Positions 17,607 through 58,584 of a DNA stretch of 64,000 nt are shown here, piece after piece (within the stretch, counting starts at the first letter, position 1; the number at the start of each line of letters is the position of its first letter). The stretch is from Schmidtea polychroa (lineage: Eukaryota): NCBI GenBank assembly GCA_044892525.1, contig CM097885.1, positions 14,324,001 through 14,388,000 on the forward strand, given 5' to 3'. Below the pieces are notes generated by a model. The model worked only from the letters and a program-made list of their open reading frames with translations. It ran no database searches and had not been told where the DNA came from. Position numbers and translations under genes: made by a program.

Positions 17607-18223
<617 letters not shown>

Positions 18224-22466: not shown

Positions 22467-22670
22467 TTAATACAATAATAAAATCGAATAATAAAAATCA
22501 AAGAAAAGATTGAATATTTATAGTGATTCTGAATTGCATCAAATTCTCCACCGTGGATTGAATGACAACGCGTTTCTAAAAATAGTAACAGAAATTTCAA
22601 CATTTTCTGATTGGTCATTTAGAATAATTAATGCCAATCTATCACAGACTTAAACAATAGATTGATGACG

Positions 22671-22787
<117 letters not shown>

Positions 22788-31126: not shown

Positions 31127-31140
31127 ATTATTACTATAAT

Positions 31141-31233
<93 letters not shown>

Positions 31234-31289
31234 CGTCATCAATCTATTGTTTAAGTCTGTGATAGAATGGCATTACTTATTCTAAATGA

Positions 31290-31389
31290 CCAATCAGAAA
31301 ATGTTGAAATTTCTGTTACTATTTTTAGAAACGCGTTGTCATTCAATCCACGGTGGAGAATTTGATGCAATTCAGAATCACTATAAATA
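31290..31389 (+). promoter_or_regulatory. ARF promoter: CCAAT, MEF2-like CTATTTTTAG, C/EBP-ATF-like TGATGCAAT, TATA box
   Basis: Motifs at 31290, 31319, 31363 and 31382. The block is conserved upstream of all five near-identical ARF copies. Confidence 0.55.
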
Positions 31390-31437
31390 TTCAATCTTTT
31401 CTATTAATTTTATTGTTTGATTTCATTATTGTATTAA

Positions 31438-32066
31438 ATGGGAATACTTTTGAGTAGATTATACAAATTGCTAAACGAGTTGTCTCAATCTGATCCTAGG
31501 AGAATCCTAATGTTGGGATTGGATGCTGCTGGTAAAACCACAATTCTATACAAATTGAAACTCAATGAAACTGTGACAACGATTCCAACAATCGGATTCA
31601 ATGTGGAGGAAGTTTCAATTGGGAAAGGTTTGAAATTCACAATTTGGGATGTGGGAGGTCAAGAGAAGATTCGACCGTTATGGAGACATTACTATACGAA
31701 TTGTCATGGATTGATTTATGTAGTGGACAGCAATGATGTGGAAAGGTTGAAGGAATCAAGAGATGAATTATTTACGATTGCTGAATGTGACGAGATGAGA
31801 AATGTAAATCTAGATTTGATAGGAAATTGAAATGTTTAACATTGATTCAGATTCCAATAGTGGTGATTGCAAACAAACAAGATTTACCAAATGCCATGTC
31901 ACCAAGTAGAATTGTGGAAGGGTTAGAATTATCGAAACTGGAGCGCACTCACAAATAGCACCTGCAAGCATGTTGTGCAGTTTCCGGTGATGGACTATAC
32001 GAGGCATTGGAAGCAGCAGGGAAATTATCATCAGAATACTTAAAGAGTTGTAAATCATTTCGGTAG
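31438..32066 (+). pseudogene. ARF/ARL-family copy 4 with a premature stop (exons 31438-31803 and 31851-32066)
   Basis: TGG>TAG at 31956-31958 (HKW>HK*) removes the G5 motif and C-terminal helix. Otherwise near-identical to the intact copies. Confidence 0.88.
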
Positions 32067-32309
32067 ATTGTTTAAAAGGTTTTCTGAAGGGAGATTGCGA
32101 GACATATTTTCAATAAAATTATTTTTCTGTTTTTTTATTTTTATTTTGCATTTTAGAATTATATTTGTAAAAATTTATTTAAATAAAATTCAGAACGATG
32201 CGAATTTGTCAATTAATATCATCACAATTTTATTCATCAAGCATAATTATTGAATTAAATTGAGTAGAAAGATGACAACATGACACGGTTAGAATCTTAA
32301 TAATTTCTT

Positions 32310-33230
32310 ACGGGGGTCCGAATGATACCCTGTCAATTCAATATATTTTTGGGTCATGTAATCAAAAACAAAACGATGAGGCCAGACCCTGATTTTCGGA
32401 GCTCTCAACGCCAACATGAAATCTAGATTTACATTTCTCATCTCGTCACATTCAACAATCGTGATCTGGTATGACATATTGTATGAAATTACCAACCTAA
32501 GCAAAGTTATGCCAAACAATCTAAAAATGACGAATTATTTGACTTGATTATAAAACAAAACTGGAGAAATTGGTGTAAGATTAGGCCCAAGGGCAACATT
32601 ACCCCAAGTACGGCTTAAGCGAAAACGACGGTTTTTGCCATATGAAGGAAATGATTTACCCCTGTATGGATAAGCCAGATATAAACTCGAGGTTTTATTG
32701 CAATAAATAACTTATTAAGTCTCAATAAAAGATTCCAAATACTTGACTCATACAGACAAATAGCAAGATTTAGATGTAAATCAGTTCTGTCCTAAACAGG
32801 AAAGGAAATGATTTACCCCTGTATGGATAAGCCAGATATAAACTCGAGGTTTTATTGCAATAAATAACTTATTAAGTCTCAATAAAAGATTCCAAATACT
32901 TGACTCATACAGACAAATAGCAAGATTTAGATGTAAATCAGTTCTGTCCTAAACATTTTGATCACTTTACCTATTTCAGTGCAAAACGCAGAGTTCATTT
33001 TCCAAATTAAAGCTCATAAAAACGATTGACCTTCCAATCTAGGTGAGGATTCATGATCTTCTTTCGCTTTAATTTATATAGAAAATGAAATAATTAGGTC
33101 ATGAAGTTTTTCTGACTTAATTCTTTAATGAAAAGTCTTACAAACTCAACAGTATGTTATGAAGGAGGTTTGAGTTATTTTAATACGAAAATTCTATACA
33201 AGAAAGTATGATACTGTCGCTGGTGCCCTC
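32310..33230 (+). mobile_element. Heavily deleted hAT transposase remnant
   Basis: IWYDILYEITNLSKVM, RLKRKRRFLPYE and degenerate ILITLPISV..SFSKLKLIKT dimerisation-domain pieces. Partial paralog at 53370-53750. Confidence 0.65.
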
Positions 33231-33277: not shown

Positions 33278-34531
33278 CAGCTATGCACAACCCGCGGTCT
33301 ACGGGCCGCATGCGGCCCTAATTTATTTATAATTTGTATATTTAAATAAAAAAAATTGTTGTATACTAATTGTGAAATTATGCAATTACATTGAAATGCA
33401 TCAGAAAATAATCCGATATGAAATGATACGACACTGAAAAAGTACTCTCAATTGCTGGTTGAGATTTATTTATGTCCGCATATATAAAAAATGAATTCTA
33501 ATTACTTGATATATTTTATGTTATTACTTAAAAAATGAATCTCAGTATGACATGCAAACCCAACATTTTTTAAATGGTGTGATAAAAATTTTAACTTATC
33601 GGAAGAAATTATTTTTACTCTTCTGTTTGAGTTTGTACTTTGCATAGTTTTATTCAGTTTTTTGTTTAATTTGGTCATAAAAAATAATATGTCGGTATCA
33701 AAACAACTTAAGAAACGGAAATTAGAAAATGAAAGACGAGTATTCCAAGAGCAATGGACAGAAAAGTTTTGTCGAGCATAAAGGTAACATTATATGTTTA
33801 ATTTGTAAAGCAACAATTGCTGTGGCGAAAGATTATAACTTAAAAAGACATTTTCAAACTAAACATTTTGATTTTGATGAAAAGTATTCTGGTGTTTTAA
33901 GAAAACAACAAATTACTACAATGGTCCAATCACTACAAGCACAACAAAATATTTTTAAAAAGTGCAATGAGTCCGCTAAGCAAGCAGTTCAAGTAAGCTT
34001 TGAAATTGCTCATTTAATAGCTAAATCGTCACGACCGTATACTGATGGTCATTTTGTAAAAAAAAATGCTTTATCGTGGCGTCGAAAAAAAAAGTTGTAC
34101 AAAATGCACCTCGAAATTTGAAGCACTAAGTTTAAACCGAATGACAATACAACGGCGTATTACTGATATTTCAGCACATATTGTGACTAAATTTTCAACA
34201 ATATTCAAAAATTGTATCAAATTTTCGTTAGCTATTGATGAATCTACCGATGTTACTTCAATTGCTCAATTATGTATATATGCCCGTTGTATAACATCAG
34301 ATTATGAAATCTTTGAAGAGCTTGTCGAACTTTATCCAATGAAAGGTCAAACAAAAATATCGGATTTATTAGAGGCATTACTATCTAGCATGCATAAACA
34401 TAATTTGGATTTATCAAAGCCTTCTGGTATAGTGATAATAATAACTGGTTCTAGAGTAATTGCCTGTCGCCCACATTCAATTATTAATTTGCTAATGTGG
34501 CCCACAGCGTTGAAAATGTTGTGCATGGCTG
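33278..34531 (+). mobile_element. hAT (Charlie/GTF2IRD2-like) element, internally deleted
   Basis: TIRs CAGCTATGCACAAC and GTTGTGCATGGCTG; 8-bp TSD GTGTAGAT. Frameshifted transposase (KKRKLENERRVFQEQWT, CLIC..NLKRHFQTKH, FSLAIDESTD). Confidence 0.93.
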
Positions 34532-35845
34532 GTGTAGATAATAAGAAAAGGTGTGAGGACTATAGAATCTTGGAATGAACTCTTTCAACCTCCTCGCAAC
34601 CTACCGGTGATATTTTACGTGTATAATGAATTGTTGCCACGTGTTATGGTCCTGGTTACAATTTTTTCTAGTGAAATACAACAATAAATGTCTAGCAATA
34701 AATGTCACCTTTTAGTGTCTATACAGATATCTAAAGGAGGCCAAAAGGTTAAATAGAATAATATAATATAATTGCTACAAAAATTAGTTAATTGTTAATT
34801 AATTAAAATAAATCGTCCAAAATATTTGCTTTCAAAGCAAGATCTTTATGTTGAACAGGAGTCTTCGACCTTCGAGCCCAACATTCTTGATCTTTATTAC
34901 TACATTTAGAGTTTAGTTTATGCAATTAGTTTCTGCAACAATTATTTTATAGAAATATGATAACAACCTTTTGCAGGATAAATATTCAGCGGTGAAACAA
35001 TTAAAAGAACTCGAAGGACTCACAATAACTTTAGCTTGAGTCTTTCTACTCTTTCTAACATCACGAGATGACTTTATAAGTTTCTGTGCTTTTTAAACAG
35101 AGAAAGAAGCAGTGTATGGGAGTCTGTTTGCGAATAGGTGGCAGGAGAGCTAATAAAGGAGCTTCCGATGCAACAAAAGAATTGCAATTTGAAGCGTCCC
35201 AAAAAATGCCTCTAGTAAAACGTAATATCAGGCAACACAAACAATAATTTCAAATGAGCAAGATGCCGGATGGAATTATGCTCGTTATATATTTCTAAAA
35301 GGGGTCCGTAAACAGTAAAATATAATTTGTTGCAAACATTGCTTAACAAAAACTAATTAATTATTTATTAATTAAAATAATTATTAATCAAATGAAATTT
35401 AACCAATCACGAGGTAACCCAAATATCATTTGCTTTCAAAGTACATTTACAGGAGCCTTTGACCTTTTGCAATATATTAGTCAGACCTTGTGTCAAGAAA
35501 GAAACCTTCACAATATTTTATCTTGAATTTATATTGATCTCTTGCACTTGAAATAATTAAAAGAACCCGAAGGAATCATAATAACTTTAGCCACTCATTC
35601 TATCACTTCTTGAAGTAGCAATGCCTTCATCAGATTGTCTTTCAAATCTTTTACTCTCTTGCTAAGGACAGAATAGATCACAGGGCCTATTTGCCTTATT
35701 TATTGTTGCCACGTGTAAATGTTCTCATTGCAGTTCAAATACAAAAACAATTTACATGAAATACAAACATTACAAACGTATAAATGTCTATGAGAACATC
35801 AAATAGCATACAAAATCAAACTGTAATATCACAACCAACATTTGT

Positions 35846-35861
35846 GGTCCTAAAGAGGACC
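35846..35861 (-). terminator. Histone mRNA 3' stem-loop
   Basis: GGTCCT-CTTT-AGGACC-ACAAA downstream of H2B copy 2. Confidence 0.9.
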
Positions 35862-35896
35862 GTTGAACATTCTCAAACTAAATGAAAATCAACAAT

Positions 35897-36268
35897 TTAC
35901 TTGGCACCAGTGTATTTAGTGACAGCCTTGGTTCCTTCACTGACAGCATGCTTGGCCAATTCTCCAGGCAAGATCAATCGGACAGCAGTTTGGATCTCTC
36001 TGCTGGAAATCGTTGATTTCTTGTTGTAAGTTGCCAACTTACTAGCTTCAGTTGCGATTCTTTCGAATACGTCATTAACGAAACTGTTCATGATTGACAT
36101 GGCTTTACCAGAAATTCCAGTATCTGGATGAACTTGTCTGAGAACTTTGTAGATATAGATACCATAGCTTTCTTTACGTTTGTGAGATCTCTTCTTTTTG
36201 TCGGATTTCACAACTTCCTTGGAAATCTTCTTTACTGATTTTGTAGCGACTTTTGCTGAAGGAGCCAT
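35897..36268 (-). CDS. H2B: Histone H2B, copy 2
   Basis: Intact 123-aa H2B with a downstream stem-loop. Confidence 0.98.
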
Positions 36269-37964
36269 TTTAATCTGAATTTTATAAATGATAAAAGTTC
36301 ATTCCTTCGTTATATATGATTATCATTTTTTTAAAATATATTACGTTGCGGTATTTTCAATGATAAAAATTAGAAAATTTAAATTTTGTTTCTGAAATAA
36401 AAACTAATTCAGTAATAATTTTTTATTTTACAAATAGAACAAAATGTGCAATTATTACAGAAATGAAGACCTGTTTAGGATTATTGAAATGTTTTTTTTA
36501 ATTAAAATTTTTTATAAATCTTCCGCTTTTATGCGAATTATTTCCACGCAAGAAATTATTACGCTGAGATAACATTTTAAAATTAAAATTTCTTTTAGAA
36601 ACTAATATTAATAATTAATTAATTTTTGTGACAATTTAATGTAATTTTCTAAGTTTTATTTTCTATTAAATACACAAAATGTGAGTGCAAAATAATTAAT
36701 TAATTTTTTTGCCATTTAACTCATGAATTAATTTTAATGTAATTTTCTGTGCTATTTTTATTAATTTTATCAACTTCTGTTGGGGTTAAATACACAAAAT
36801 GTGAGTGCAAAATAGTAGGTAGTTAGGAGCTCCCTGCAGCAATGACCCCCCCCCCGGGGGGGTCTGCTGCAACTTTTGATTACGCAATTGCTGCAACTCA
36901 CATTTTTTGCGTTCAGGGATTTTTGGTCCAAATTTTTTTTCAATACAAAAACGATGGTCCTGGGATTTTCAATACAAAAAATTTTTTTCAATACAAAAAT
37001 CCGACTACCACTAAAAAAGCATGGTAATTTAAGGTCTCAGGATATTTTCAATACAAAAAGCTGGTCTACACTAAAATAGCGTGGTAATTTAAGGTCTCAG
37101 GATATTTTCAATACAAAAATCCGACTATCAATAAAAAAGCATGGATTTTTCGAATTAAATTAAGGTGGGTCTCCTTGGTCCTGAGAAAAAGGTGGTCTAC
37201 ACTAAAAAACATGGTAAATTTTTCAATTAAAGTAAATAATGGTCCAAATTTTTGAATTAAAGTAAATTATGGGTCTAAAAATTAAATTAAAGTAATCAAT
37301 GGTCCTAAAAAATTAAATTACAGTAAATAATGGTCCAAATTTTTCAATTAAAGTAAATTATGGTTCTAAAAATTAAATTAAAGTAAATAATGGTCCTAAA
37401 AAATTAAATTACAGTAAATTATGGTTCAAATTTTTCAATTACAGTAAATTATGGGTCTAAAAATTAAATTACAGTAAATAATGGTCCAAATTTTAAAATT
37501 AAACTAAATTAAGGTTCTAAAAATTAAATTAAAGTTAATTAAGGTCCAAATTTTAAATTAAGTAATCAATGGTAAAAAATTTTAAATAAGTAAATTAAAG
37601 TAATAATTTTTAAATTAAGTAATCAATGGTAAAAAATTTTAAATAAGTAAATTAAAGTAAATTAAAGTAAGATTTTAAAAATTTAATTACAAAATAATAG
37701 AAGGTGTTTGAGAATTGAAATTTTTTAATGAAAATTTTTATGAAATAATTTTTAAGTAATTTTTAATAGAAATTTTAATGAAATATTTTTCAATGGTAAT
37801 TTTTAATGGAAATTTTTATGGAATAATTTTTTAAGTTAATTTTTAATGGTAATTTTTATGAAATATTTTTCAATGATAATTTTAGATGGAAATTTTTAAG
37901 ATAATTTTTAATGAAAATTTTTATGAAATATTTTTCAAAGACAAATTTTAATAATAATTCAACA

Positions 37965-39290
37965 ACAAACCAACAACTTAGTACCAACAACCAGTAACTT
38001 ACGAACATGTATTAACAACCAGATACCTACAACTAGTTACTAACAACCAGTTACCTGATACCAGATACCTACCAACTACTTACAACCAAAATCAACCAGA
38101 TACCTACAACTAGTTACTAACAACCAATTACCTGCTACCAAGTACTTACAACTAGATACCACGTACTAAATAACTCTCAAACAACCAAGTACCTACAACA
38201 AATTACCAGATACCAAGTACCTACAACTAGTAACTAACAACTAGTTACCTGATACTAAGTACCTACAACCACCTAACAAGTACTAACAACCAAAAACAAG
38301 CAACCAACCAGGTACCAGATACCACCTACTAAGTACCAACAACCAACTAGCTACCAGATACCTACAACTAGATACTAACAACTAGATACCAAGTACCTAC
38401 AACCACCTACCCATTATCTAGCTACCAAGTACTAACAACCAGGTCTCAAACAACTAAATACTAACAACCAGTTACCAACTACTAAGCATTAATTACCTAC
38501 AACTAGTTACTAACAACTAGATACCAAGTACTTACAACCAACATCAACCAGGTACTAAGCATCATCAACTAACTACTAAGTACCTACAACCTACAACTAG
38601 ATACTAACAACCAGTTACCTGCTACCAAGTACTTACAACTAGTTACTAACAACCAACCAACTAGGTACTAGACACCAAGTACTTACAACCAACATCAACC
38701 AGGTACTAAGCATTATCAACCAACTAAATACTAAGTACTCACAACCAACCAACTAGGTACTAGATACCAAGTACTCACAACCGACAACAACCAGGTACTA
38801 AGCATCATCAACTAACTACTAAGTACCTACAACCTACAACTAGATACTAACAACCAGTTACCTGATACCAAATACTTACAACTAGATATCAAGTACTATC
38901 AACCAAAAACAACCAACCAACTAGGTACTAGATACCAAGTACTAACAACCAACAACAACCAGGTACTAAGCATTATCAACCAACTAAATACTAAGTACTA
39001 ACAACCAACCAACTAGGTACTAGATACCAAGTACTCACAACCGACAACAACCAAGTACTAAGCATTATTAACCAACTACTAAGTACCTTCAACCAACTAA
39101 CAACCACCTACCAAGTACTAACAACCAGTTACCAACTACTAAGCATTAATTACCTACAACTAGTTACTAACAACTAGCTACCAAGTACATACAACCAGAC
39201 ACTAAGCATTATCAACCAAGTACTAACAACCAAGTAACTTACCTAGTACTGTCAACTAGATACCAAACACTTACAACCAGATGACCACAT
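37965..39290. repeat. CA-rich degenerate minisatellite domain of the left arm (mirrored as GT-rich at ~46230-47125)
   Basis: Shuffled short words such as CAACTAG, TACCAAGTAC, TACTAACAAC and CTAAGCATT. Confidence 0.9.
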
Positions 39291-39577
39291 GAAATTATTG
39301 GTTAAATATGAAAATATGGATTATATTTAGTTGTTAAGTAAACTATGGTGTAGAATTAAGAAATAAAGAATAATTAGGTAAATTAAAGTTAAAAATTTTA
39401 AATAAGTAAATTAAGGTTCAAAATTTAAAATTAAGTATCCAATGGTTCAAATTTTAAATTAAAGCTAAATAAGTAAATTAAAGAAAGATTTTTAAATTTA
39501 TTATCAAAAGATTGAATAACCACCAACTTTTTTGAGAAATGTAATTTATAATGAAAATTTAAATGGAAATTTAAATG

Positions 39578-39673
<96 letters not shown>

Positions 39674-40073
39674 TAATAATAATTCAACAGTTACCAACAA
39701 TCAGTTACTGATTATTTTTTAACTAGGTGCTAACAAATACTTACAACATGATACCACGTACTAACTAACTCTCAAACAACCAGATACTTACAACTAACTA
39801 CTAAATATTCTAAATTTTAAATTAAAGGAAACAATGGTTTAAATTTTAAATTAAAGCTAAATGAGTAAATTAAAGTAATAATTTTTAAATAAGTAATGTA
39901 ATAAGTAAATTGAAGTAAGATTTTAAAATTTATTAACAAAAAAATAGAAGGTGTTTGAGAATTGAAATTTTTTAATGAAAATTTTTATGAAATAATTTTT
40001 AGGATAATTTTTAATGAAAATTTTTATGAAATATTTTTTAAGTTAATTTTTAATGGAAATTTTAATGGAATAA

Positions 40074-40139
<66 letters not shown>

Positions 40140-40610
40140 TAATAATAATTCAACAGTTACCAACAATCGGTTACTGATTATTTTTTAACTAGGTGCTAAC
40201 AAATACTTACAACATGATACCACGTACTAACTAACTCTCAAACAACCAGATACTTACAACTAACTACTAAATATTCTTCACTGTATTTTATGAAATGCTT
40301 TTTAAATTAATTTTTTATCTATCTTCAAAAATATATTTAATTACAATCATTAGAAAAACCTTTTCAAATTTAACAAAAATGTTGATTTTCATCAAAAAAT
40401 GAATAATTGTCAACTCATCACCACATGGAATTCAAAATAATTTTAATTACAATGAAAGACTAATGAATTCTAATTTACAAAACATTCTTCTTTTAAATGA
40501 TAACTACTGACTTATTATTGCAAAGTAAAAATCGCATTCAATAAATACTTATTGTTGATCAGTTTTATTATATATACTCTGAGTTTATCCGACAGGATGT
40601 TTTGACCCCC

Positions 40611-40712
40611 TAAGGGTACAGGTCGTAAGGGTACTGGTCGTAAGGGTACTGGTCGTAAGGGTATTAGTCGTAAGGGTACTGGTCGTAAAGGTACTAGTCG
40701 TAGGGGTATTGG
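40611..40712. repeat. 15-bp tandem repeat GGTCGTAAGGGTACT
   Basis: About 7 copies following CTCTGAGTTTATCCGAC. Related arrays at ~42200, ~45255 (inverted) and ~63385. Confidence 0.9.
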
Positions 40713-43700
40713 TAACACTCTACCACAACCTACCCATTAACTAGCTACTAAGTACTAACCACTAGGTTTCAAACAACAACTACTAACAACCACCATCAAA
40801 ACCCATCGAGAAATTAACAAATATCAACCTACAATTATATAACAACAATCAGTAAACAACACTGTACCAACTACCAAATACAAAATATTCTTCATCGCAT
40901 ACACTATTTTCTTATCAAAATCTAAAAGTCAACCAACTACTTACAACCAACAACTATGTACTAACAAATTGATCTTTAAAAGCAAATACTCTTCACTTGA
41001 AAAATTGGATGAAAAATTATTTGAACTCAAGGCATCAATAACTAGGTAAAAATTGATTAAATAATTGTAAAAAATTTAAATTATTCGAAATAAATATCAT
41101 AAAAATTTAATTAATGGACAAGAAAAAAATTCTAGTCATCCAGTAAATAAAAAAAATACTGATCATTCAAGTTGAATCAACTAAGATAATAAATTAATAA
41201 GATAAGATCTAGTAGATAATTGATTTAGATTGAATAAATTAATTGAAATAAAATTAATTTTAATTATTTTTTTTAAAAGTAATACATGTACTCAAATTGA
41301 TTGACTGATTTCTCAATATATTCAAAAAATCAGTATAAATTCATTACAATTATCAAAGTCAGCAATGTACAATAAAAATAATTATCATTAAATTCCAAAA
41401 GAGACTAGATAACTAATGATAACATCTAACAAACCAGTAAATTCATTTAAATGACAATAATTGGTATATCCAAGTGAATTCTCCAATAAAATCATCTAAA
41501 AAGCATCAAATTTCCCTGAAATATCTATATCTTTTAAGATTAGTATCTAATCGATAAGTACTTGTTAAAGATCATATATTCACCTCAAACTAACAAGATT
41601 CCTTAAAATCCCTTAAATGACTATATTTCAACCCTTGTTATGTAATAAAATAGTCGCGGGTTGTTATGTAATAAACTAGTTTAAATTATATATCCTCCTC
41701 ACTTATATCCCCCCGATTCTCTATTTTCCACTAATTATTATCACTAATATTCCCCCAATTCTCCATTAATTATTCACTTATATCCCCCCGATTTTGATTA
41801 ATTATTCCCCACAAATATTTCTTTTAAAAGTTTTTTTATTAAATTTATGAATTTTATGAAATAATTTTAAATAAATTCAATTAATATATTTGCATTCTTA
41901 TCAACCTTCTTCTTATCTATGCCCATTCAATGATCCATTAATGAATTATTCTACCAATTATTTTCACCCATTTGAATTTATCATCGAGTAATGAATAATT
42001 TCCTCACTTTAATGAAGATTCTTACCACCTTCATTGTTAATTTTATCAAAGTTTAAAGAATAATTGTCTTTTCATTTTACATTGCTTACCACTTTAGAAT
42101 TTTTATCGAAATTTATGATAATTTGACTAATTCAATGAAAAATTTGAATGAGTTAATTAATATATACTCTGAGTTTATCCGACAAAATATTCTGTCCCCC
42201 TATGGGTATTGCTCACAAGGGTACTACTCACATTCAACATATCGCAAGGGTACTGATCATAAAGGTATTTAATGCTTTTATTTGAATGATTATTTAGGCA
42301 AATTTGTTGTTTAAGGCATTCATTGATAATTTTTAGAGTTGATGGTTTTAGTAAATATTCAAGTAAATTTCTATAATTTCTATTATTTTCATGAATTTCC
42401 GTAATTTTTTGTGAATATCAGTAATTTTTGTGGATATCTGTCATTTTCATGAATTTTTATCATTTTTGTGAATTTCTTTGATTTTTGTAAATTTCTATTA
42501 TTTTTGTGGATTTCTAACATTTTTGCAAATTTCATGTTTATTGAATGAATATTTAATAATTTAAAGTTAGTTCTAAGATAAATTTAATTAATTTCTTGAT
42601 AATTGGATGTATTTTTAATTTTAAATAAAAATTATTTTCAATGAGGTTAATAATTAGAGTTTGTACAATAATCAAGTGATAGGATAAATTTTTATGAGGA
42701 TATTGAACAATTTTCTAAGAATTTCATGTTGACTGATAAATTTAATTGATAAATTTAATTAATTTCTTGATAATTAGTTGTATTTTATTGAATAGTTTTT
42801 AAATAAAAATTAATTTCATTGACAATTAGGTTAATAATTAAGTGATAGAATAAATTTTTGATGATAACTTTGTAATATATTTGACTAGATAATTTTTTTC
42901 AATAATTTTCTAAGAGTATTTACTCATTGATGAACTTTTAAAACCTAAGCTAAGAAACCAACTTTATCAATGACTTTAAATTTACTTGATAATTATTGTA
43001 GAATATACTGAAATTTAGTTTGCTGTTATTGCTTGAAAATGATTGGCTGAATAGCTGAAGAATTATCATCAAACAATATATATCATCTCTAGTTAGGTAT
43101 TTGATGGTAAATATTTGTAGAAAATAATGAGTTTATTATATCTTTGTTACATAAGTCGACTTTAGCGTCAAAATGTGTTTTTAAAATATATTTAAAATAC
43201 CGCAACGTAATATTTTTTTCCCTGCCCTTCCATGATTTTGATTGGTTAGTGGGCTCTTATTATTTAGCTTCTAAATTATTTCTTTGGAAGAATGCCTGGT
43301 GTCTATAACAATTAATTAAAAGTCATATTTTTGAAGTTCTCTAAGGATTTTAAGAGGATTGATATATTAAAGTGCTCAAGTGGGTGGAATCTTTGGGGAA
43401 ATTAAGGGATATAATCGGATAGATGTTTAAAAGGGTAGAAATATTTGCTGAGAGATCGGTTAAGATGGGATATTGTCGGTGAGATTTAATGAGAGATCGA
43501 TTAAGATGGGATATAGTCGGTTAATATGGGAATATTTCATTTTAAGAAAGATATAGTCGGTTGCTTTTAATGAGGGAAGGGTTTCGATGGGAATCTTTTG
43601 AATATTTACATGGGAAATGTTGGTCAAATATCAATGTTTTTAAGGAAATTGCAATACATTAGTCAGTTATGAATCAATAATAATTATATCGTTTTATTAG

Positions 43701-45760
43701 GTTGTGATTAATCCATTGTATTTTAATTTAGATTTATGTTTTAGAATAATTTTTTATTAAATTTTCTTTTAATTATCCAGGGTTTTATTAAGTAGTGTTA
43801 ATGACCGATTTACTTGGTTTTGACAATGAAATCTTTATAGATAATTTGGATTGATATCAACTTTAAATTATTTTTATCTTTATTTAGACGGACAACGACA
43901 AAAGTTGACCATTTGAAGAAATATATTTTATTGAATGGATAAATTTAATCTTTCAATGGGACCTAGTCAGTTATATTTATTTTAAATTTCGAGTACAGTG
44001 ATTAACGAAAATTTAATTATAACCGGTTTATTTAGGGTTAATGATTTTACATGTTTTATAGGGAAATATTCGTGATAATAGGAAATAAAGTTAGAATTAT
44101 AGTCATTTAAGGGGGATTTTAAGCAATCTTATTAGTCTGAGGCAAATATATAACCTTTTAAGGATATTTATCGATAAAATACTAATCTTTAAAGTTAGAG
44201 TTATTTCAGGGAAATTTGATGGTTTTTAGATGATTTTAGTAAAATATTTGTAATAATATGAATTAAGGGTCGAAATATAGTCATTTAAGGGATTTTAAGG
44301 AATCTTGTAAGTTTGAGGTAAATATATGATCTTTAACAATTATTTATCATTAAAATACCAATCTTTAAATATTGATATATTTGGGGAGAAAATAATTCTT
44401 TTTAGATGATTTTATTGGAGAATTCACTTGGATATACCAATTATTGTCATTTAAATGAATTTACTGGTTTGTTAGATGTTATCATTAGTTATCTAGTCTC
44501 TTGGAATTTAATGATAATTATTTTTATTGTAGATTGCTGACTTTGATAATGGTAATGAATTTATACTGATTTTTTTGAATATTTTGAGCAATCAGTCAAT
44601 CAATTTGAGTACATGTATTACTTTTAAAAAAATAATTAAAATTAATTTTATTTCAATTAATTTATTCAATCTAAATCAATTATCTACTAGATATTATTTA
44701 TTAACTTAGTCGATCCATATTAACTTGAATGATCAGTATTTTTTTTTATTTACTGGATGATTAGAATTTTTTCTTGTCCATTAATTAAATTTTTATGATA
44801 TTTATTTTGAATAATTTAAATTTTTACAATTATTTAATCTATTTTTATCAAGTTATTGATGCCTTGAGTTCAAATAATTTTTCATCCAATTTTTCAAGTG
44901 AAGAGTATTTGCTTTTAAAGATCAATTTGTTAGTACATAGTTGTTGGTTGTAAGTAGTTGGTTGACTTTTTAGATTTTGATAAGAAGATAGTGTATGTGA
45001 TGAAGAGTATTTTGTATTTAATTGCTATTATTTTTATGTGTTGTTAGTTGATTGTTGGTACTAAGTTGTTGGTATCTTGTATTTGGTAGTTGGTACAGTG
45101 TTGTTTACTGATTGTTGTTATATAGTTGTAGGTTGATAATGCTTAGTACCTGGTTGTTAGTTGATTGTAAGTGTTTAGTATTTAGTTGTTTGAGACTTGG
45201 TTGTTAGTACTTCTTAGGTGGTTAATGGGTAGGTGGGGGGTTGAGAGTTAGCAATACCCTTACGACCTGTACCCTTAGGGGGTCAAGACATCCTGTCGGA
45301 TAAACTCAGAGTATATATAATAAAACTGATCAACAATAAGTATTTATTGAATGCGATTTTTACATTGCAATTAAAAAGTAATTAAAGTAATCAATTAAAA
45401 GAAAAATGTTTTGTAAATTAGAATTCATTAGTCTTTCATTGTAATTAAAATTATTTTGAATTCCACGTGGTGTTTTAAATTGATTGAGTTGTGGTTTTTT
45501 GATGAAAATCAACATTTTTGTTAAATTTAGACATTTTGAAAAGGTTTTTCTACTGATTGTAATTAAACATATTTTTGAAGACATATAAAAAATTAATTTA
45601 AAAAGCATTTCATAAAATACAATAAAGAATATTTAGTTGGTTGTTAGTACTTGGTTGTTTGAGAGTTAGTTAGTACGTGGTATCATGTTGTAAGTATTTG
45701 TTAGCACCTAGTTAAAAAATAATCAGTAACCGATTGTTGGTAACTGTTGAATTATTATTA

Positions 45761-45817
<57 letters not shown>

Positions 45818-48800
45818 TTATTATTCCATTAAAATTTCCATTAAAAATTAACTTAAAAAATATTTCATAATAATTTTCATTAAAAATTATCCTAAAAATT
45901 ATTTCATAAAAATTTTCATTAAAAAATTTCAATTCTCAAACACCTTCTATTTTTTGTTAATAAATTTAAAAATTTTAGTTTAATTTACTTATTACATTAC
46001 TTATTTAAAAATTATTACTTTAATTTACTCATTTAGCTTTAATTTAAAATTTAAACCATTGTTTCCTTTAATTTAAAATTTTGAACCTTAATTTACTTAT
46101 TTAAAATTTTTAACTTTAATTTACTTATCCTTAATTTGCCTATTTATCCTTAATTACTTAATTTTACACCATAATTTACTAAACAACTAATTATAACCCT
46201 TATTTTCATATTTAACCAATAATTTCATGTGGTCATCTGGTTGTAAGTGTTTGGTATCTAGTTGACAGTGCTTATTACTAGGTAAGTTACTTGGTTGTTA
46301 GTACTTGGTTGATAATGCTTAGTACCTGGTTGATGTTGGTTGTATGTACTTGGTATCTAGTTGTTAGTAACTAGTTGTAGGTAATTAATGCTTAGTACCT
46401 AGTTGTTGTCGGTTGTTAGTACATGGTAGATGGTAGCTAGTTGGTTGTAGGTACTTAGTAGTTGGTTGATAATGCTTAGTACCTGGTTGTTGTTGGTTGT
46501 TAGTATTTGGTAGCTAGTTGGTTGCATGTTTTTGGTTGTTAGTATCTAGTTGTAGGTACTTGGTATCAGGTAACTGATTGTTAGCTGGTTGCTTTTGGTT
46601 GTTAGTGCTTGGTAGGTGGTGGTTAGTTGTTAGCTGGTTGTTGTTGGTTGTAAGTACTTGGTAGGTGCTTAGTAGTTGGTAACTGGTTGTTAGTTCTTGG
46701 TATCTAGTACCTAGTTAGCTAGTTGTAGCTAGTTAATGGGTAGGTGGTAGCTAGTTGTTAGCTGGTTGTAGCTAGTTAATGGGTAGGTGTTTGTAGGTAC
46801 TTAGTAGTTGGTAACTGGTTGTTGGTATCTAGTTGTAGGTATCTGGTTGATGTTGGTTGTAGGTACTTAGTAGTTGGTTGTAGGTACTTAGTAGTTGGTA
46901 ATTAATGCTTAGTACCTGGTTGTTGTTGGTTGTTAGTACTTGTTAGGTGGTTGTTGGTAATTATTGCTTAGTACCTGGTTGTTGTTGGTTGTTAGTACTT
47001 GTTAGGTGGTTGTAGGTACTTGGTATCAGGTAACTGGTTGTTAGTAACTAGTTGTAGGTATCTGGTTGTAACTACATGTTCGTAAGTTACTGGTTGTTGG
47101 TACTAAGTTGTTGGTTTGTTGTTGAATTATTATTAAAATTTGTCATTGAAAAATATTTCATAAAAATTTCCATTAAAAATTAACTTAAAAAATTATTTCA
47201 TAAAAATTTTCATTAAAAAATTTCAATTCTCAAACACCTTCTATTATTTGTTAATAAATTTTAAAATCTTACTTTAATTTACTTATTACATTACTCATTT
47301 TTAAATTATTACTTTAATTTACTTATTTAAAATATTTTACCATTAATTACTTAATTTAAAAATTTGGACCTTAATTTACTTATTTAGAACCTTAATTAAC
47401 TTTAATTCAATTTTTAGACCCATAATTTACTTTAATTCAATTTTTTAGACCCATAATTTACTTTAATTCAAAAATTTGGACCATAATTTACTGTAATTCA
47501 AAATTTTTGACCATAATTTACTGTAATTTAATTTTTTAGGACCATAATTACCTTATTTGAAAAATTTGAACCTTAATTTACTGTAATTCAAAAATTTGGA
47601 CCATAATTTACTGTAATTGTAAATTTTGGACCATAATTAGCTGTAATTTAATTTTTTAGAACCATTATTTACTTTAATTGAAAAATCTGGACCATAATTT
47701 ACTGTAATTGAAAATTTTGGACCATTATTTACTGTAATTTAATTTTTTGGGACCATAATTTACTGTAATTGAAAAATTTGGACCATAATTTACTGTAATT
47801 CAAAAATTTACCACGTTTTTTTTTAGTTTAGACCACCTTTTTCTCAGGACCAAGGAGACCCACCTGAATTGACCTAGAAAAATCCATGTTTTTATATTGA
47901 GACCGCCTTTTTCTATTGAAAATTTTTTTTGTATTGAAAATCCCAGGACCATCGTTTTTGTATTGAAAAAAATTTTTTGTATTGAAAATCCCAGGACCAA
48001 AGAGACCCCCTCGCTATAGTCTGAAAAATTCCATGCTTTTTTAGTGGTAGTCGGATTTTTGTATTAAAAAAAATTTTTTGTATTGAAAATCCCAGGACCA
48101 CCTTTTTGTATTGAAAATATCCTGAGACCTTAAATTACCATGCTTTTTTATTGAGACCGCCTATTTGTATTGAAATTCTCAGGACCAATTAGACCCACCT
48201 GAATTGACCTAGAAAAATCCATGCTTTTTGTATTGAAATTCTCAGGACTAAGGAGACCCCCTCGCTATAGTCTGAAAAATTCCATGCTTTTTTAGTGGTA
48301 GTCGGATTTTTGTATTAAAAAAAATTTTTTGTATTGAAAATCCCAGGACCCCCTTTTTGTATTGAAAATATCCTGAGACCTTAAATTACCATGCTTTTTT
48401 ATTGAGACCGCCTATTTGTATTGAAATTCTCAGGACCAAGGAGACCCACCTGAATTGACCTAGAAAAATCCATGCTTTTTGTATTGAAATTCTCAGGACC
48501 AAGGAGACCCCCTCACTATAGTGTGATAAATCCTTGGCTTTTTTATTGAAGACCGCCTTTTTCTATTGAAAAATTTTTTTTTGTATTGAAATTCTCAGGA
48601 CCAAGGAGACCCCCTCACTATAGTGTGATAAATCCTTGGCTTTTTTATTGAAGACCGCCTTTTTCTATTGAAAATTTTTTTTTTGTATTGAAAATCCCAG
48701 GACCATCGAGACCCCCTCACTATAGTCTGAATAATCCATGCTTTTTTATTGAGACCGCCTTTTTGTATTGAAAATCCCAGGACCATCGAGACCCCCTCAC

Positions 48801-49598
48801 TATAGTTTGATAAAAAAAAAATTGGACCAAAAATCCCTGAACGCAAAAAATTTGAGTTGCCGCAATTGCGTAATCAAAAGTTGCCGCAAAAAAAAGGTAA
48901 TTGCGGCAGGGAGCTACTAACTACCTACTCAAAATAGTTAAATTCCCCCAAAATTAATTCAAATTCAAAAGTAAATTAAAGTGCAAAAATTACGAAAAAT
49001 CAAAATTTTAGTGCAAAATAATTAACTAATAAATTTATATTAATAATTAAATTTTATTTAAAATATTATCACATTAATACAGGGGAAAAGTTCTTAAAAT
49101 GTGAATTTCATATTTGTGTAGATTTAACAATGTCACGTGATGTAAAATAATTTTTTATTAATTTTTTATTAAACTTTATCAGATTGAAAATTAATTTATT
49201 TTTGTCTTTTAACTTATTCTGATTAATTATCTCGTGTTATTTTCATATTTATATAGTTTCAACAAGATGAGAGTATACCTATATCATCAAAGTAAAAGAA
49301 ATACATACATTGATTTTGTAATGACTTTAATATTAAGAAAAATTTTTAGAAAGCAAAAAATCCAAAAACCGTAAAATACAATACAATTAACTTTAAAAAT
49401 AATTATTTTGTAACAATTTTTTTTCGGATATTTAGCGCAAATCGAGCGCCTCTAACTTTTTGGAGCCCTTGGCAAATGCTAACTTAGCCCTAAGGAAGAG
49501 CTGGTGTGACCAATATGAAATAATAGGTTACGGATGATTACATTTTTATATATAAATAAGGTGTGTTAGATATACCTGAAGTCACGGATACTCTAGAT

Positions 49599-50095: not shown

Positions 50096-50868
50096 CTTTA
50101 AATGGTTATCAAATAAGAACGCAATAACTATATGACCATGAAATAGCACAAAGAATGGGTTGAGAGGATATTAAATTAATTTTTAATTTTCCTTTTACCC
50201 TTGCAGGATTGTAATCACCTACCAAACCTTATGTATGACTGTTATCCTATTTAACAATTTTATTAGCTTGGTTGAGTCAAATCTTTTGATAGGAACGGAT
50301 TTTATTTCTGATTCCATGTACCCATTTATCCCTACTAACCGCTTTCCCTAGCAATTCGTATGGTCACTAAATGTTTGATTGTAAGCAAGGAGTGAGCTAA
50401 TATAATGAAACTGCAAAATCACTGACAATCCATGAGATTATGAAGGTTTTATTACCGATAGCAAGAAATTAATAGGAAATTAGAAAAATGTCCCAATATC
50501 AAGGATTGTCAGTGATGTCATTCACAAGGATAAATATTGAGAAGTAAGATTAACAGATTGAGAGGAAGGTTTTTTATATTTTGATTAACAGAATGATTTA
50601 TACACTATTGCAAATAATTCATACATTTGTTGAATGTACAGAATATGTGGGCTGACAAGTATGAGATGAATTTGATGAGGTGGGGGGGGGGGGGGGCAAA
50701 ACTTATGCTTGATGAATGAAATTGTGATAATATTAATTGACAAATTCGCATCGTTCTGAATTTTATTTAAATAATCTTTACAAATACAAAATAAAAATAA
50801 AAAAACAGAAAAATAATTTTATTGAAAATATCTCTCGCAATCTCCCTTCAGAAAACCTTTCCAACAAT

Positions 50869-51497
50869 CTACTGAAATGATTTACAACTCTTCAAGTATT
50901 CTGATGATAATTTCCCTGCTGCTTCCAATGCCTCGTACAGTCCATCACCGGAAACTGCACAACATGCCTGCAGATGCCATTTGTGAGTACGCTCCAGTTT
51001 CGATAATTCTAACCCTTCCACAATTCTACTTGGTGACATGGCATTTGGTAAATCTTGTTTGTTTGCAATCACCACTATTGGAATCTGAATCAATGTTAAA
51101 CATTTCAATTTCCTATCAAATCTAGATTTACATTTCTCATCTCGTCACATTCAGCAATCGTAAATAATTCATCTCTTGATTCCTTCAACCTTTCCACATC
51201 ATTGCTGTCCACTACATAAATCAATCCATGACAATTCGTATAGTAATGTCTCCATAACGGTCGAATCTTCTCTTGACCTCCCACATCCCAAATTGTGAAT
51301 TTCAAACCTTTCCCAATTGAAACTTCCTCTACATTGAATCCGATTGTTGGAATCGTTGTCACAGTTACATTGAGTTTCAATTTGTATAGAATTGTGGTTT
51401 TACCAGCAGCATCCAATCCCACCATTAGGATTCTCCTAGGATCAGATTGAGACAACTCGTTTAGCAATTTGTATAATCTACTCAAAAGTATTCCCAT
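50869..51497 (-). CDS. ARF/ARL-family small GTPase, copy 5 (193 aa; exons 51497-51132 and 51084-50869)
   Basis: Intact, same motifs and intron as the other copies. Confidence 0.95.
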
Positions 51498-51700
51498 TTA
51501 ATACAATAATAAAATCGAATAATAAAATCATAGAAAATATTGAATATTTATAGTGATTCTGAATTGCATCAAATTCTCCACCGTGGATTGAATGACAACG
51601 CGTTTCTAAAAATAGTAACAGAAATTTCAACATTTTCTGATTGGTCATTTAGAATAATTAATGCCATTCTATCACAGACTTAAACAATAGATTGATATCG

Positions 51701-51840
<140 letters not shown>

Positions 51841-52200
51841 ATAAAATTATTGGATTTAATTAAAAAATTAACCGATGCGGTTAATTAATTTCAAATTTTA
51901 TTTAAACTTAAAAGCAAATCTTATTTAATTAAGACAATTTCAGTAACTATAAATGCCTTGATAATGGTGTCAGAAATGCCTCAGTTTCTTCAGTTGAAGA
52001 TATGATGAAGTTAAAAATGCTATCAACCTATTAAACTACCGGCATAAAGATATTACTAGAACTTTTAAGATTTTCAAAAACCACTCAAATGGATATTTCA
52101 GTAGCAAACATCATCAGGTCAATAATAGAAGTAAATTTCTTAATTCAGTTGCTAGATCATCAAATCTTTAATATTGCAATTTCAGAATAATAATAATAAT

Positions 52201-52300
<100 letters not shown>

Positions 52301-52504
52301 CGTCATCAATCTATTGTTTAAGTCTGTGATAGAATGGCATTAATTATTCTAAATGACCAATCAGAAAATGTTGAAATTTCTGTTACTATTTTTAGAAACG
52401 CGTTGTCATTCAATCCACGGTGGAGAATTTGATGCAATTCAGAATCACTATAAATATTCAATCTTTTCTGTGATTTTTATTATTCGATTTTATTATTGTA
52501 TTAA

Positions 52505-53133
52505 ATGGGAATACTTTTGAGTAGATTATACGATTTGCTAAACGAGTTATCTCAATCTGATCCTCGGAGAATCCTAATGGTGGGATTGGATGCTGCTGGT
52601 AAAACCACAATTCTATACAAATTGAAACTCAATGAAACTGTGACAACGATTCCAACAATCGGATTCAATGTGGAGGAAGTTTCAATTGGGAAAGGTTTGA
52701 AATTCACAATTTGGGATGTGGGAGGTCAAGAGAAAATTCGACGGTTATGGAGACATTACTATACGAATTGTCATGGATTGATTTATGTAGTGGACAGCAA
52801 TGATGTGGAAAGGTTGAAGGAATCAAGAGATGAATTATTTACGATTGCTGAATGTGACGAGATGAGAAATGTAAATCTAGATTTGATAGGAAATTGAAAT
52901 GTTTAACATTGATTTAGATTCCAATAGTGGTGATTGCAAACAAACAAGATTTACCAAATGCCATGTCACCAAGTAGAATTGTGGAAGGGTTAGAATTATC
53001 GAAACTGGAGCGCACTCACAAATGGCACCTGCAAGCATGTTGTGCAGTTTCCGGTGATGGACTGTACGAGGCATTGGAAGCAGCAGGGAAATTATCATCA
53101 GAATATTTGAAGAATTGTAAATCATTTCGGTAG
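52505..53133 (+). CDS. ARF/ARL-family small GTPase, copy 6 (193 aa; exons 52505-52870 and 52918-53133)
   Basis: Intact, 47-bp GT...TAG intron. Confidence 0.95.
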
Positions 53134-53775
53134 ATTGTTGGAAAGGTTTTCTGAAGGGAGATTGCGAGACATATTTTCAATAAAATTATTTTTCTGTTTT
53201 TTTATTTTTATTTTGTATTTGTAAAGATTATTTAAATAAAATTCAGAACGATGCGAATTTGTCAATTAATATTATCACAATTTTATTCATCAAGCATAAT
53301 TATTGTAATAAATTGAGTAGAAATATGACAACATGACACGGTTAGAATCTTAAGAATTTCTTACGGGGATCCGAATGATACCCTGTCAATTCAATATATT
53401 TTTGGGTCATGTAATCAAAAACAAAACGATGAGGCCAGACCCTGATTTTTCGGAGGCTCTAATGAGCTCTCAACGCCAACATGAAATCTAGATTTACATT
53501 TCTCATCTCGTCACATTCAACAATCGTGATCTGGTATGACATATTGTATGAAATTACCAACCTAAGCAAAGTTATGCCAAACAATCTAAAATTAGGACCA
53601 AGGGCAACATTACCCCAAGTACGGCTTAAGCGAAAACGACGGTTTTTGCCATATGAAGGAAATGATTTACCCCTGTATGGATAAGCCAGATATAAACTCG
53701 AGATTTTATTGCAATAAATACAGTCCAAACTGTCAGGAAACTGCCTTCCTTCGTCTAGTACTCATCAATATATAT

Positions 53776-56700
53776 TGTTAAGAGGTTCCTACTATATTTG
53801 TTTTATATTATATGTATTCTGCTTGTGCTTATGTTCGCGAATGCTGTAAGAAATATGTTAGTACCCAGCCGATTCTCCAGTTAATAAACTGTCTCGGGAC
53901 AGCTGGGGTGAATGTATGTAGGAATGTATAAAAATACAATAATAAATTAACAATAACGGGTACCAAGCAATAAGAACCTTTATTTAAATAATAAAAAAAC
54001 AGTTGACTTACCAAAATTTTAATGAGCAATCATGAAGGGAATTGGAGAAGGAATCATCTTCTTAGTTTTGTAATTTTTATAATTTCCATAATATTCATAA
54101 CAATTTGTAACAATCATATAATTTCATCGTAATTGATTTTTTTCTTTTTGTCGATAGTTGTATAGCGATAATTTACCATAGCAAATTATCGCTATATAGT
54201 ATTTTTTATTCGTTTGCCATTGCGGCCTACACTCGATAAGATGATAAGGCGTCGCAAAACCTTGTTTAAAAATAAATAAAATATATAACAGTACATTACA
54301 CAACTTCCCCCTTTAAAACCGGAGGTTAACATGGATTAATAAAAAGTAACATAAAAAATTACATTCAATAACCTTTTTTTTAGTATGTTTTATATGTTTT
54401 TATGTATTTTGTTTCTGTGTCTTTGTATCTACAAACTGGATAAAACAAAAAATTTACAATTTACTCTATATTTACAACGAAATTGGTAAAAAAACTGTAC
54501 AATTGGTATTGTTTGTGCGTGTGTTTTTTGTGTTGGTGTTTTAATTAAGGCAATCGCTGTATTGTTTTTTGTATAGGGGTGTGATTATTGTATCTTTGTC
54601 AAATAGAGTGATTGAGTTTTTGTGGTTAAATGTGATGTTTTTGTGAATTGGTTGTGTTTTCGTTTGTATTTGTGTTTTGTTTTCTGGTGTATTGTTTTGT
54701 GGGTTTTCGTTCTGGTGATAGGGTTTTATTCGTCTTATGTTTATTTTAATTTTGTTGTTGTTTTTGATTATTGTGGCGACGTTTTTGTTAATTTCTAGGA
54801 GTTTGAATGGACCTTCGTATTTGGATTCGAATCCTTTTGTGAATGGTTTTTTTATTAGGATGAAATCTGTTGTTAGTACTGTTTTTCCATCCAATTCAGA
54901 GTCCGGTTTCCTCTTTAAAATTCCTATTGGTTTCTGTTCAGTGATTTCTTTATTTTTGTTTGTTATTTGTTTGAAGTTTTCGGTGTTTTTATTTGTATCT
55001 GATTTAAGTGATGGCAAGTTTGCTGCTTTTCCGAAAACCTTGTATGCTGGACTTTCATTATCTACTGAGTTAGAGCAATTTCTCAGTCCGATTAGTATTG
55101 TGGGTAGTTGATTTAACCAGTTTTGGTCATTGGCTTTTGTTCTGATGCTTTCTTTTAATGTTCTGTGAAACCGTTCAATTTTCCCGTTTGATTGTGGATT
55201 GTACGCTGTTGTTCGGTTCCTTTTGATGTTGTATTTGTTTTAGAGTATTTTGAACATTTCTGATTCGAACTGTCTGCCTTGGTCAGTTATGATTGTTTTC
55301 GGTTGGCCATAACGAGCTATCCAATTTAATTCGATCATTTCACAGATATTTTTTGAGCTGATTTCTCTTATTGGGATTACTTCAAACCAGTTGGATTTCC
55401 TGTCTATAATTGTCAGCAGGTATTTGAAGTTGTCGTTTGGTGGTAGTGGTCCTACCACACCTGTGTGTATCGTTTCAAAAACTTCGCTGCTTGGGAAGTT
55501 TACTTTTTGTGTTTTGAGTTTTTTTTAGTTGACAGCTGTGACAACTTTTGACATAGTTTTTGATATCTTTCCGCATGTTAAGCCATATATAGTTGTTATC
55601 TATTAACTCGAATGTTACTTTGTTTCCCGGGTGATTAATTATGTGTATCTTTTCGATACAGTTTTGGCGGAATTCCTCCGGGAGTAATATTTGTTTGTTG
55701 CTTTCGTTGGAGATGTCGTGCTATACTCCGCTGAGTTCTTATAGTTTCAAACTGTGTTTAGTGGGGAGTTTGTTAATTGTTTCGTTTTGTTTGGATTTAA
55801 TTTGGTCTAATTCGATTATCTCTTCGAAATCTAGTGAGTTTATGTCACTTTCATTTCTTGATAAAGCGTCCGCTGCTATGTTTGATTTTCCCGCTACGTA
55901 GTTTATTGTGCAGTTGAATTGTGAAATGAAGTTGATTTGTCTGATCTGCCTTGGTGAGGGATTCTTCATTTCGAATGCGTTAGTTATCGGTTTGTGATCT
56001 GTAAATATTTTGAAGTTTCGTCCTTCGAGTAAATGTTGGAAGTGTTTGATTGCTTTTATTGGAGTTCTCTGTCGAATGTTGAGTATCTTGTTTGGTGTGA
56101 CTTTAGTTTTTTAGAGAAGAATCCTAGTGGTTGTTTGCCGTATTTGTTTACCTGGAAAATTGTTGCGCCCATTGCAAAACCTGAACAGTCTGTCGTTAGT
56201 TGGTAATCTAGCTCTGGATCTGGGTAACCGAGTAATGTTGCCGTTGAAAGACTTTCTTTGGCATTCTCGAAAGTATCGGTTGTTTGTTGTGTCCAGTTTA
56301 TTGTGACATTCCGTTTTGTTTTGATGTCATTTAGTGGTGCTAGTAATTTACTGCAGTTTGGGATATAAGAATGGTAAAAGTTTACCATTCCTAGAAATCT
56401 CCTCAGCTCTCTTGTGTTTTTCGGCAGTTTGTAATTTTTTATGCTGTTTATTTTGTTTTCAATTGGTTGTGTTCCTTTGTCGTCCAGCGTGTGACCAAGG
56501 AAATTTATTTCAGCTTTCATGAATTCACATTTTTGTATGTTTATTTTCAATTTTGATTTTTTCAGCGTTTCGAATACTTTTTCGACGTCTTTTAGGTGTG
56601 TTTCTTTGTCTGGGCTAGTTATTAGGATGTCGTCTAGATAAGCGATTGTGTTTTTATTTTTTTTCAATCTTTCAGCGTTCCCATCAAATCAATCCCTTTA

Positions 56701-58533: not shown

Positions 58534-58549
58534 GGTCCTAAAGAGGACC
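58534..58549 (-). terminator. Histone mRNA 3' stem-loop
   Basis: GGTCCT-CTTT-AGGACC-ACAAA downstream of H2B copy 3. Confidence 0.9.
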
Positions 58550-58584
58550 GTTGAACATTCTCAAACTAAATGAAAATCAACAAT

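Follow-up and report, generated by a model that had tools for sequence, protein, structure and literature searches.

The window analysed here is a stretch of 64,000 nucleotides from Schmidtea polychroa (contig CM097885.1, positions 14,324,001 to 14,388,000 of the forward strand). Positions 36814-48929 of the window are occupied by a fold-back element of 12,116 bp with a GC content of 0.27, which begins with AGTAGGTAG, ends with CTACCTACT and is flanked by CAAAAT on either side. The DNA around the element is AT-rich and holds many retrotransposon remnants. Both flanks belong to the same dispersed repeat, and an insertion-free paralogue of this target repeat is present at window positions 58240-59856. 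The features of the locus, in window coordinates, are:

36808..36813, unstranded: left copy of the target site duplication (TSD) CAAAAT, 6 bp
36814..37960, + strand: left core of the terminal inverted repeat (TIR), common to full Mavericks and pPolB-only relatives; terminus AGTAGGTAG, GC hairpin at 36835-36871, GGTCCTGGG repeats, 30-bp AT repeats at 37216-37652 and 13/40-bp repeats at 37716-37952
37969..39232, + strand: CA-rich minisatellite of the gene-free (N) arm, not found in K2, K10 or K8
39300..40150, + strand: re-duplicated 30-bp and 13-bp modules; (AAT)n at 39579-39683 and again at 40069-40149
40571..40713, + strand: near-invariant 23-bp motif TATATACTCTGAGTTTATCCGAC (40571-40593) and, after it, the 15-bp array
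40720..41636, + strand: non-repetitive portion of the left N arm, up to the deletion junction
41634..41636, unstranded: junction of the shortened left arm with the inner end of the right arm, 3-nt microhomology CTT
41634..44265, + strand: inner right N arm (the earlier "spacer"), collinear with the K5 N arm; inner-end repeats, second 23-bp motif at 42161-42183, 19-bp repeats and a 176-bp duplication
42481..43249, + strand: homologue of the DNA that precedes pPolB in pPolB-only elements; its core, with a GATTGG box, at 43145-43249
44265..45825, - strand: non-repetitive portion of the right N arm, free of coding signal, with the third 23-bp motif at 45295-45317 and (ATT)n at 45751-45825
46230..47097, - strand: GT-rich minisatellite of the right arm
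47125..48929, - strand: right core of the TIR; expanded repeats that contain CCCAGGACC at 47830-48810, terminus CTACCTACT
48930..48935, unstranded: right TSD copy CAAAAT, 6 bp

A preliminary description of this DNA had recognized a 12.1-kb fold-back element, and its coordinates and ends proved exact. The estimate that about 80% of the element consists of inverted arms was likewise borne out, with inverted self-matches covering 9,689 of the 12,116 bp. Global alignment of the left and right arms gave 3,431 matches and 275 mismatches (92.6%) over 5,790 columns, in addition to large indels in repeat number, and the CCCAGGACC block is far longer in the right arm than in the left. The ordered modules ascribed to each arm were all recovered, except that the 15-bp array (6.9 copies) is confined to the left arm. 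Folding of the terminal hairpins gave z values of -4.5 (left) and -2.6 (right).

The element carries no genes that could be recognized. No stop-to-stop frame of 100 codons exists anywhere in it, and a comparison with 44 ORF products of Maverick-family elements from the same genome returned nothing better than E 0.08. Neither a protein-primed polymerase (pPolB) nor a retroviral-like integrase was apparent as ORF, homology or coding signal, and ATPase, protease and capsid proteins are not encoded by the element. A set of 2,243 distinct inner-arm substitutions had synonymous fractions of 0.15-0.32 across frames, compared with 0.43-0.58 for the coding frame of a pPolB control, and 197 of 884 arm indels were multiples of three. 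With no frame showing a synonymous excess and with indels not in triplets, a hidden or spliced gene in the arm was rejected. A structured RNA was rejected as well, since an Rfam search of the element gave no match at E up to 0.5. No RNA dataset was among the public records listed. Parts of the arm are present in contigs from two public runs presumed to be RNA, which cannot show transcription.

To place the element among its relatives, the genome (781 Mb, 1,012 contigs) was searched with its termini. The exact 22-base terminal pattern matched 146 times; a broader terminal pattern gave 5,397 matches in the genome and none in the control. In 30 of 30 fetched ends the base preceding GTAGG was A, and the base before that A varied, which places the end of the element at AGT. 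Regions surrounding listed termini, or surrounding matches to the polymerase, the integrase or the arm, were then retrieved, and 43 of them contained both termini (the best pair was taken where a region had more than two). These 43 relatives displayed 37 exact 6-bp TSDs, three with one mismatch and three that were worse; the sole exact duplication longer than 6 bp sits in an AAT microsatellite. Five copies are nested in reference Mavericks, and there the target halves overlap by exactly 6 bp. Perfect TSDs were also seen for copies of only 2-10 kb, and remnants of about 75 bp (L016 and L020) keep an intact TSD. Thus, the AGT-type ends and 6-bp TSD of the preliminary description hold for the other copies. 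This combination is the Maverick signature according to the available text of PMC8097293. The 9-bp duplication of Mutator or Foldback type, which had been raised as a caveat, fits the window copy and three others (4 of 43) but not the remaining 39, and is a coincidence of the target site of the window copy. Seven of 40 elements (four of 26 chosen by termini only) lie inside Maverick-family DNA; since a background estimate is missing, no targeting of other Mavericks is claimed.

The same ends were found on full Mavericks. Among the first 100 listed terminal matches there were 27 pairs, of which ten with lengths of 14.8-17.5 kb were opened: six were gene-free palindromes, two full Mavericks, one a polymerase-only element and one a chimera, proportions that are size-biased because of this selection. 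The full Mavericks K2 (C1:1836403-1853479, 17,077 bp) and K10 (16,575 bp) both have 6-bp duplications, and their TIRs show 78-80% identity to window positions 36955-37958 over 0.8-1.1 kb, with the same modules; pPolB-only elements exhibit 80-85% identity to the left TIR core. Both K2 and K10 encode an integrase with rve and chromo domains (in K2 in two pieces), an A32 ATPase, an adenovirus-type protease, a TBP-like protein and a pPolB of 1,433 amino acids. K2 has in addition two 340-aa ORFs of penton size and a 408-aa ORF. The latter is likely a capsid protein, since it is 65% identical to an ORF that has double-jelly-roll clusters among its Atlas neighbours (score 0.98, a call in which the family is found on 15-24% of members and recognition is under the threshold of the tool). 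Genome-wide there were at least 91 pPolB and at least 126 capsid-family matches, and the full Mavericks measured span 15.2-17.1 kb. Copies with the same termini that encode pPolB, integrase and ATPase, and likely capsid, therefore exist, and the earlier view of the element as a satellite of an autonomous Maverick is supported by the termini and repeat-built TIR that it shares with them. Two other candidate helpers were superseded by K2 and K10: the MD family has only the first nine terminal bases in common with the element and no DNA match to it, and the PLA2-integrase family has different ends. In a FastTree phylogeny (31 of 52 rows, K2 not included) the PB-type polymerase adjoins the MD Maverick polymerase, and a second polymerase-only lineage is placed elsewhere. 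None of 80 metagenome loci and one viral contig with related pPolB matched the arms, the closest contigs being too short for architecture.

The family to which these elements belong is modular. Its linear genomes consist of two arms of about 8 kb that are joined at the centre and carry the same terminus. We refer to the polymerase half as A, to the integrase/virion half as B and to the gene-free half as N. Arm A has pPolB, arm B has the TBP-like, ATPase, integrase, protease and likely capsid genes, and arm N has no gene. The combinations A+B, A+A, B+B, N+N and N+B were all found integrated with 6-bp duplications, mostly at lengths of 13-17.5 kb, and for one terminal subtype 37 of 43 pairs measured 12.5-16.5 kb. 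The copies are dispersed, each with its own TSD, and exact matches in the genome amounted to 2,321 N-arm motifs, 1,012 polymerase markers and 213 integrase markers. Coding copies with these TIRs contain Maverick genes or nested unrelated elements (43 of about 2,700 elements opened).

K2 and K10 are of type A+B, and in the first 56 Mb of C1 a polymerase marker lies 8-12 kb from 12 of 17 integrase markers. The A+A elements, 11-16.3 kb long, are head-to-head palindromes that carry a pair of pPolB genes and no other gene; of 100 listed polymerase markers, 46 belong to such head-to-head pairs. Single-A forms measure 9-10 kb, and the A arm of both types is 90-94% identical to the polymerase arm of K2. 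Four inverted integrase pairs were opened. Two of these, B3 (17,433 bp) and B4 (16,510 bp), are complete B+B elements with 6-bp duplications and without pPolB, and B1 and B2 are rearranged or incomplete; the arms of B2-B4 stop at one and the same K2 position. K5 (15,248 bp) is of type N+B and has a truncated capsid-like gene. The window copy, like most others, is the N+N combination of this Maverick family. The advance made here is the cognate helper together with the full set of arm combinations.

The history of the window copy could be read from its centre. The preliminary description had placed there a 2.6-kb spacer with no credible ORF; an ORF is indeed lacking, but this "spacer" belongs to the right arm, as its inner portion. 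Positions 41634-45750 are collinear with the N arm of K5, and symmetric copies carry the "spacer" sequence twice, in inverted orientation, so that the right arm comprises 41634-48929 and is mirrored by a left arm of reduced length. Two arm motifs are spaced by 4.7 kb in the window copy and by 7.5-9.7 kb in 21 of 28 listed pairs. A match spanning the junction at 41634 was absent from 59 other fetched records, and none of the public contigs among the matches listed bridges it. We infer that the window copy was once an N+N palindrome of about 15-16 kb and lost about 3-4 kb, the inner left arm and the centre, at the 3-nt microhomology, either before or after insertion. When the arm was divided into 500-bp bins, another locus was a better match than the opposite arm in 19 of 20 bins (some partner loci had been fetched because they matched), and the best partner shifted along the arm. 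The window copy is therefore a mosaic and not a fresh fold-back.

Part of the N arm has a recognizable source. Positions 42481-43249 are 76.6% identical over 830 columns to PF, in a stretch that precedes the pPolB gene of one polymerase-only subfamily, and the 105-bp core with its GATTGG box was found in three such subfamilies. The core (43145-43249) is likely a promoter relic. The segment is missing from K2 and K10 and from the gene-free copies among the ten opened elements, which makes it a relic rather than a requirement. For the remainder of the N arm no source was detectable. The inner N arm has a single 69-bp match to K2/K10 (E 4e-6) and otherwise almost no homology to them, and thus did not arise from the present helper by simple deletion.

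Taken together, we consider it probable (about 0.8) that the element is a gene-free member of the Maverick/Polinton group, with mirror-image non-coding arms that bear the ends of the family, and that coding relatives in the same genome supply in trans the polymerase that copies it and the integrase that inserts it. Its ends and 6-bp footprint are those of a full Maverick in the same genome, and the halves of the family are doubled and swapped, which makes it a likely passenger on Maverick enzymes. From the shared ends and the N+B chimera K5 we infer that helper proteins would act in trans in both replication and integration. The terminal-protein domain of Polinton pPolB is implicated in protein priming in the available text of PMC11161782, and pPolB from A-bearing elements would be expected to prime at the AGT ends, with terminal-protein-primed strand-displacement replication. 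The displaced strand could fold back, or switch template, and so duplicate one arm in mirror image, and co-replicating molecules would exchange arms and arm pieces, which would explain the mosaic arms. The product would be inserted by the integrase of the B arm (helper). Packaging into the helper capsid, the least certain step, may be what underlies the helper-like lengths of 13-17.5 kb, and would explain why the gene-free arm stays near 8 kb; the suggestion that the element was inflated in size for packaging is unproven. Two 8-kb halves give the helper length anyway, and copies of 2-10 kb have clean TSDs, both of which speak against size selection.

A different origin of the palindromes has to be weighed against this passenger model. 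The Maverick integrase might move the element with no polymerase-driven replication or packaging, the arms having grown at their chromosomal sites through gene conversion, ectopic recombination and hairpin repair, a scheme modelled on TIR elongation proposals for classical foldbacks. Thousands of conversion templates in the genome would favour such a course, as would the central deletion private to the window copy and the 75-bp remnants with intact TSD. Moreover, P12 is an inverted duplication of 9,279 bp (99.8%) that continues about 1.15 kb past the terminus into the host flank, and duplications of this type imply that mirror copies can also arise in the chromosome or in the assembly. On the other hand, palindromes with a shared centre occur at many sites with their own TSDs (PA-PD), and the B2-B4 arms end at a single K2 position. 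This recurrence, and the abundance of head-to-head polymerase markers (46 of 100), argue that the palindromes were amplified as units, and we regard growth of the arms in the chromosome as unlikely, although it is the chief rival of the passenger model.

Palindromes are prone to mis-assembly, and the lack of a bridging contig at the inner junction among the matches listed would suit an assembly or long-read artefact. Such an artefact is nevertheless highly improbable, given that 7% of aligned sites, and large indels besides, distinguish the two arms, that the flanks with their exact TSD together restore a target repeat of which the window also contains an unoccupied paralogue, and that contigs from public runs of more than one study cover the inner arm. 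Least credible of all is a foldback transposon of Mutator or P type that makes 9-bp duplications and has no relation to Mavericks. The modular tandem-repeat arms do resemble those of Tetris (as described in the available part of PMC4079207), and the 9-bp reading suits the window copy and three others, but it fails in 39 of 43 cases, the one exact duplication beyond 6 bp lies in a microsatellite, and full Mavericks are bounded by the same TIR. Duplications of 8-10 bp are not the pattern in the TSD table, and the Mutator or P identity is thereby refuted.

Should the passenger model be correct, the doubling in mirror image and swapping of every arm would be a record of strand-displacement and fold-back replication. 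This matters since the replication mode of Mavericks and their travel in virions have so far been inferred rather than shown. With more than a thousand copies of a gene-free arm kept at a length like that of the helper, the question of packaging becomes testable. Ends sufficient for about 2,700 elements represent a large load of long palindromes in the genome, and repeat annotation that demands Maverick genes would overlook the gene-free class. A further idea, which we put forward tentatively and hold to be rather doubtful, is that the family might be a virus-like population of interchangeable half-genomes, with A+A and B+B as complementary segments on the way to a segmented Polinton, and with a repeat-padded, capsid-filling gene-free arm that parasitises and outnumbers both.

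Neither giant palindromic Mavericks without genes nor a swapping of arms was found described in the mainly open-access listings and abstracts covered, or in the available text of PMC6431247, PMC11296320 and PMC4028283. With Mavericks/Polintons (polintoviruses), as far as described in the available text of PMC8097293, PMC10748475 and PMC11161782, the element has in common the AGT-type inverted termini, the 6-bp TSD and, within its own genome, the TIR of a full Maverick. The length of the family is also close to the mean of 16.9 +/- 1.7 kb for intact vertebrate Mavericks (PMC8097293, available text), and reported TIRs are 46-1,447 bp (same text) or 100-1,500 bp (PMC10748475, in part). The element differs from Mavericks in lacking any gene, in having arms of 4.7-8 kb, and in belonging to a family that also exists as A+A, B+B and N+B.

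The foldbacks FB of Drosophila, Galileo and Tetris (PMC4079207, available part) are similarly non-autonomous, with long tandem-repeat inverted arms and a variable middle. According to the same source they have 8-10-bp TSDs and use Mutator or P transposases, and the Tetris TIRs reach about 1.7 kb. The present element, in contrast, has a 6-bp TSD and Maverick ends, and its partner is a self-replicating, virus-like element.

Snap-back and defective interfering genomes are mirror-image molecules that keep cis signals and depend on a helper. The element resembles AAV snapback genomes (PMC10924063, available text), which are symmetric or asymmetric mirror images, retain the terminal cis signals and are helper-dependent. 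Unlike snap-back and defective viral genomes, the elements described here occur as thousands of integrated copies that form lasting families, and one of their arms is without detectable coding ancestry.

Bidnaviruses are segmented, with pPolB and structural genes on different linear molecules. The separation of pPolB from structural genes in the present family recalls them, as its linear passengers recall transpovirons; the pPolB origin of bidnaviruses, and transpovirons as linear passengers of a larger virus, are treated in the available text of PMC11161782. In contrast to bidnaviruses, unsplit A+B elements are still common (12 of 17 integrase markers), each "segment" is palindromic, and all forms integrate. 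The element is neither an autonomous Maverick nor a Mutator foldback; in its way of working it is comparable to a non-autonomous Maverick or to a snap-back defective genome.

The polymerase-only elements bear the family's termini and encode pPolB and nothing else. At C1:42570000-42604600, on the contig that bears the window (records L086 and L047-L049), a 9.3-kb inverted duplication begins within a nested element of this kind, crosses the end of the host element and continues for ~1.15 kb into the flank. Fossil inner termini are retained in other polymerase-only elements (L087-L089, L145-L148 and L143), where different copies share the sequence next to them; this suggests that a duplicate of the left end took the place of the working right end.

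The window itself contains several repeats and ORFs:

7911-8847, 21702-22786, 31127-32709, 50697-51816 and 52186-53720: ~1.1-kb dispersed repeat with Arf ORF
17607-17972: additional Arf ORF
5974-6514, 35549-36699 and 58240-59385: dispersed repeat with histone-fold ORF
10929-14491, 23863-27437, 54541-57252 and 33726-34578: disrupted RT/RNase H/integrase regions of Gypsy-like type, together with a zinc-finger plus integrase-like remnant
40571-40593, 42161-42183 and 45295-45317: 23-bp motif

The ~1.1-kb repeat contains an intronless Arf-family ORF and has an (AAT)n tail; its copies in the window are 92-98% alike, and two of them form an inverted pair. One copy of the histone-fold repeat served as the target of the gene-free element at 36814-48929, and a degenerate local duplication of ~118 bp adjoins the insertion site. 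An arm presents the 23-bp motif in two settings that have otherwise diverged, and across dozens of copies the motif is nearly invariant; it may be a binding site or a fossil transposon end.

The outer right arm of a second gene-free element lies near the start of the window (590-3960), and no terminal AGTAGG was found for it. Its inner part is located upstream of the window (L276-L277) and is interrupted by an insertion whose C-terminus appears hAT-like by its motif.

Nesting is mutual between members of the family and other Mavericks (H4, L151-L153; H1, L135-L136; MA, L100-L103), and both flanks lie within Maverick-family DNA for 7 of 40 elements. Related Mavericks, namely MD (L112-L113), which shares only the first 9 terminal bases with the gene-free element, and H2 (L138), carry TBP-like and Bcl-2-like ORFs or a RING-finger ORF. 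In the full Maverick K2 (L249-L250), the integrase and protease frames are broken by short AT-rich GT...AG gaps, which are likely to be introns.

Three elements of ~75 bp (L016, L020 and L021) consist of two termini only, with the 6-bp duplication intact, and are likely collapsed palindromes. One end of K6 (L257-L258), which belongs to the ten 14.8-17.5-kb termini pairs opened, has an extra ACT triplet ahead of the 6-bp duplication. The triplet might be a trace of sliding-back initiation, a mechanism of protein-primed polymerases.
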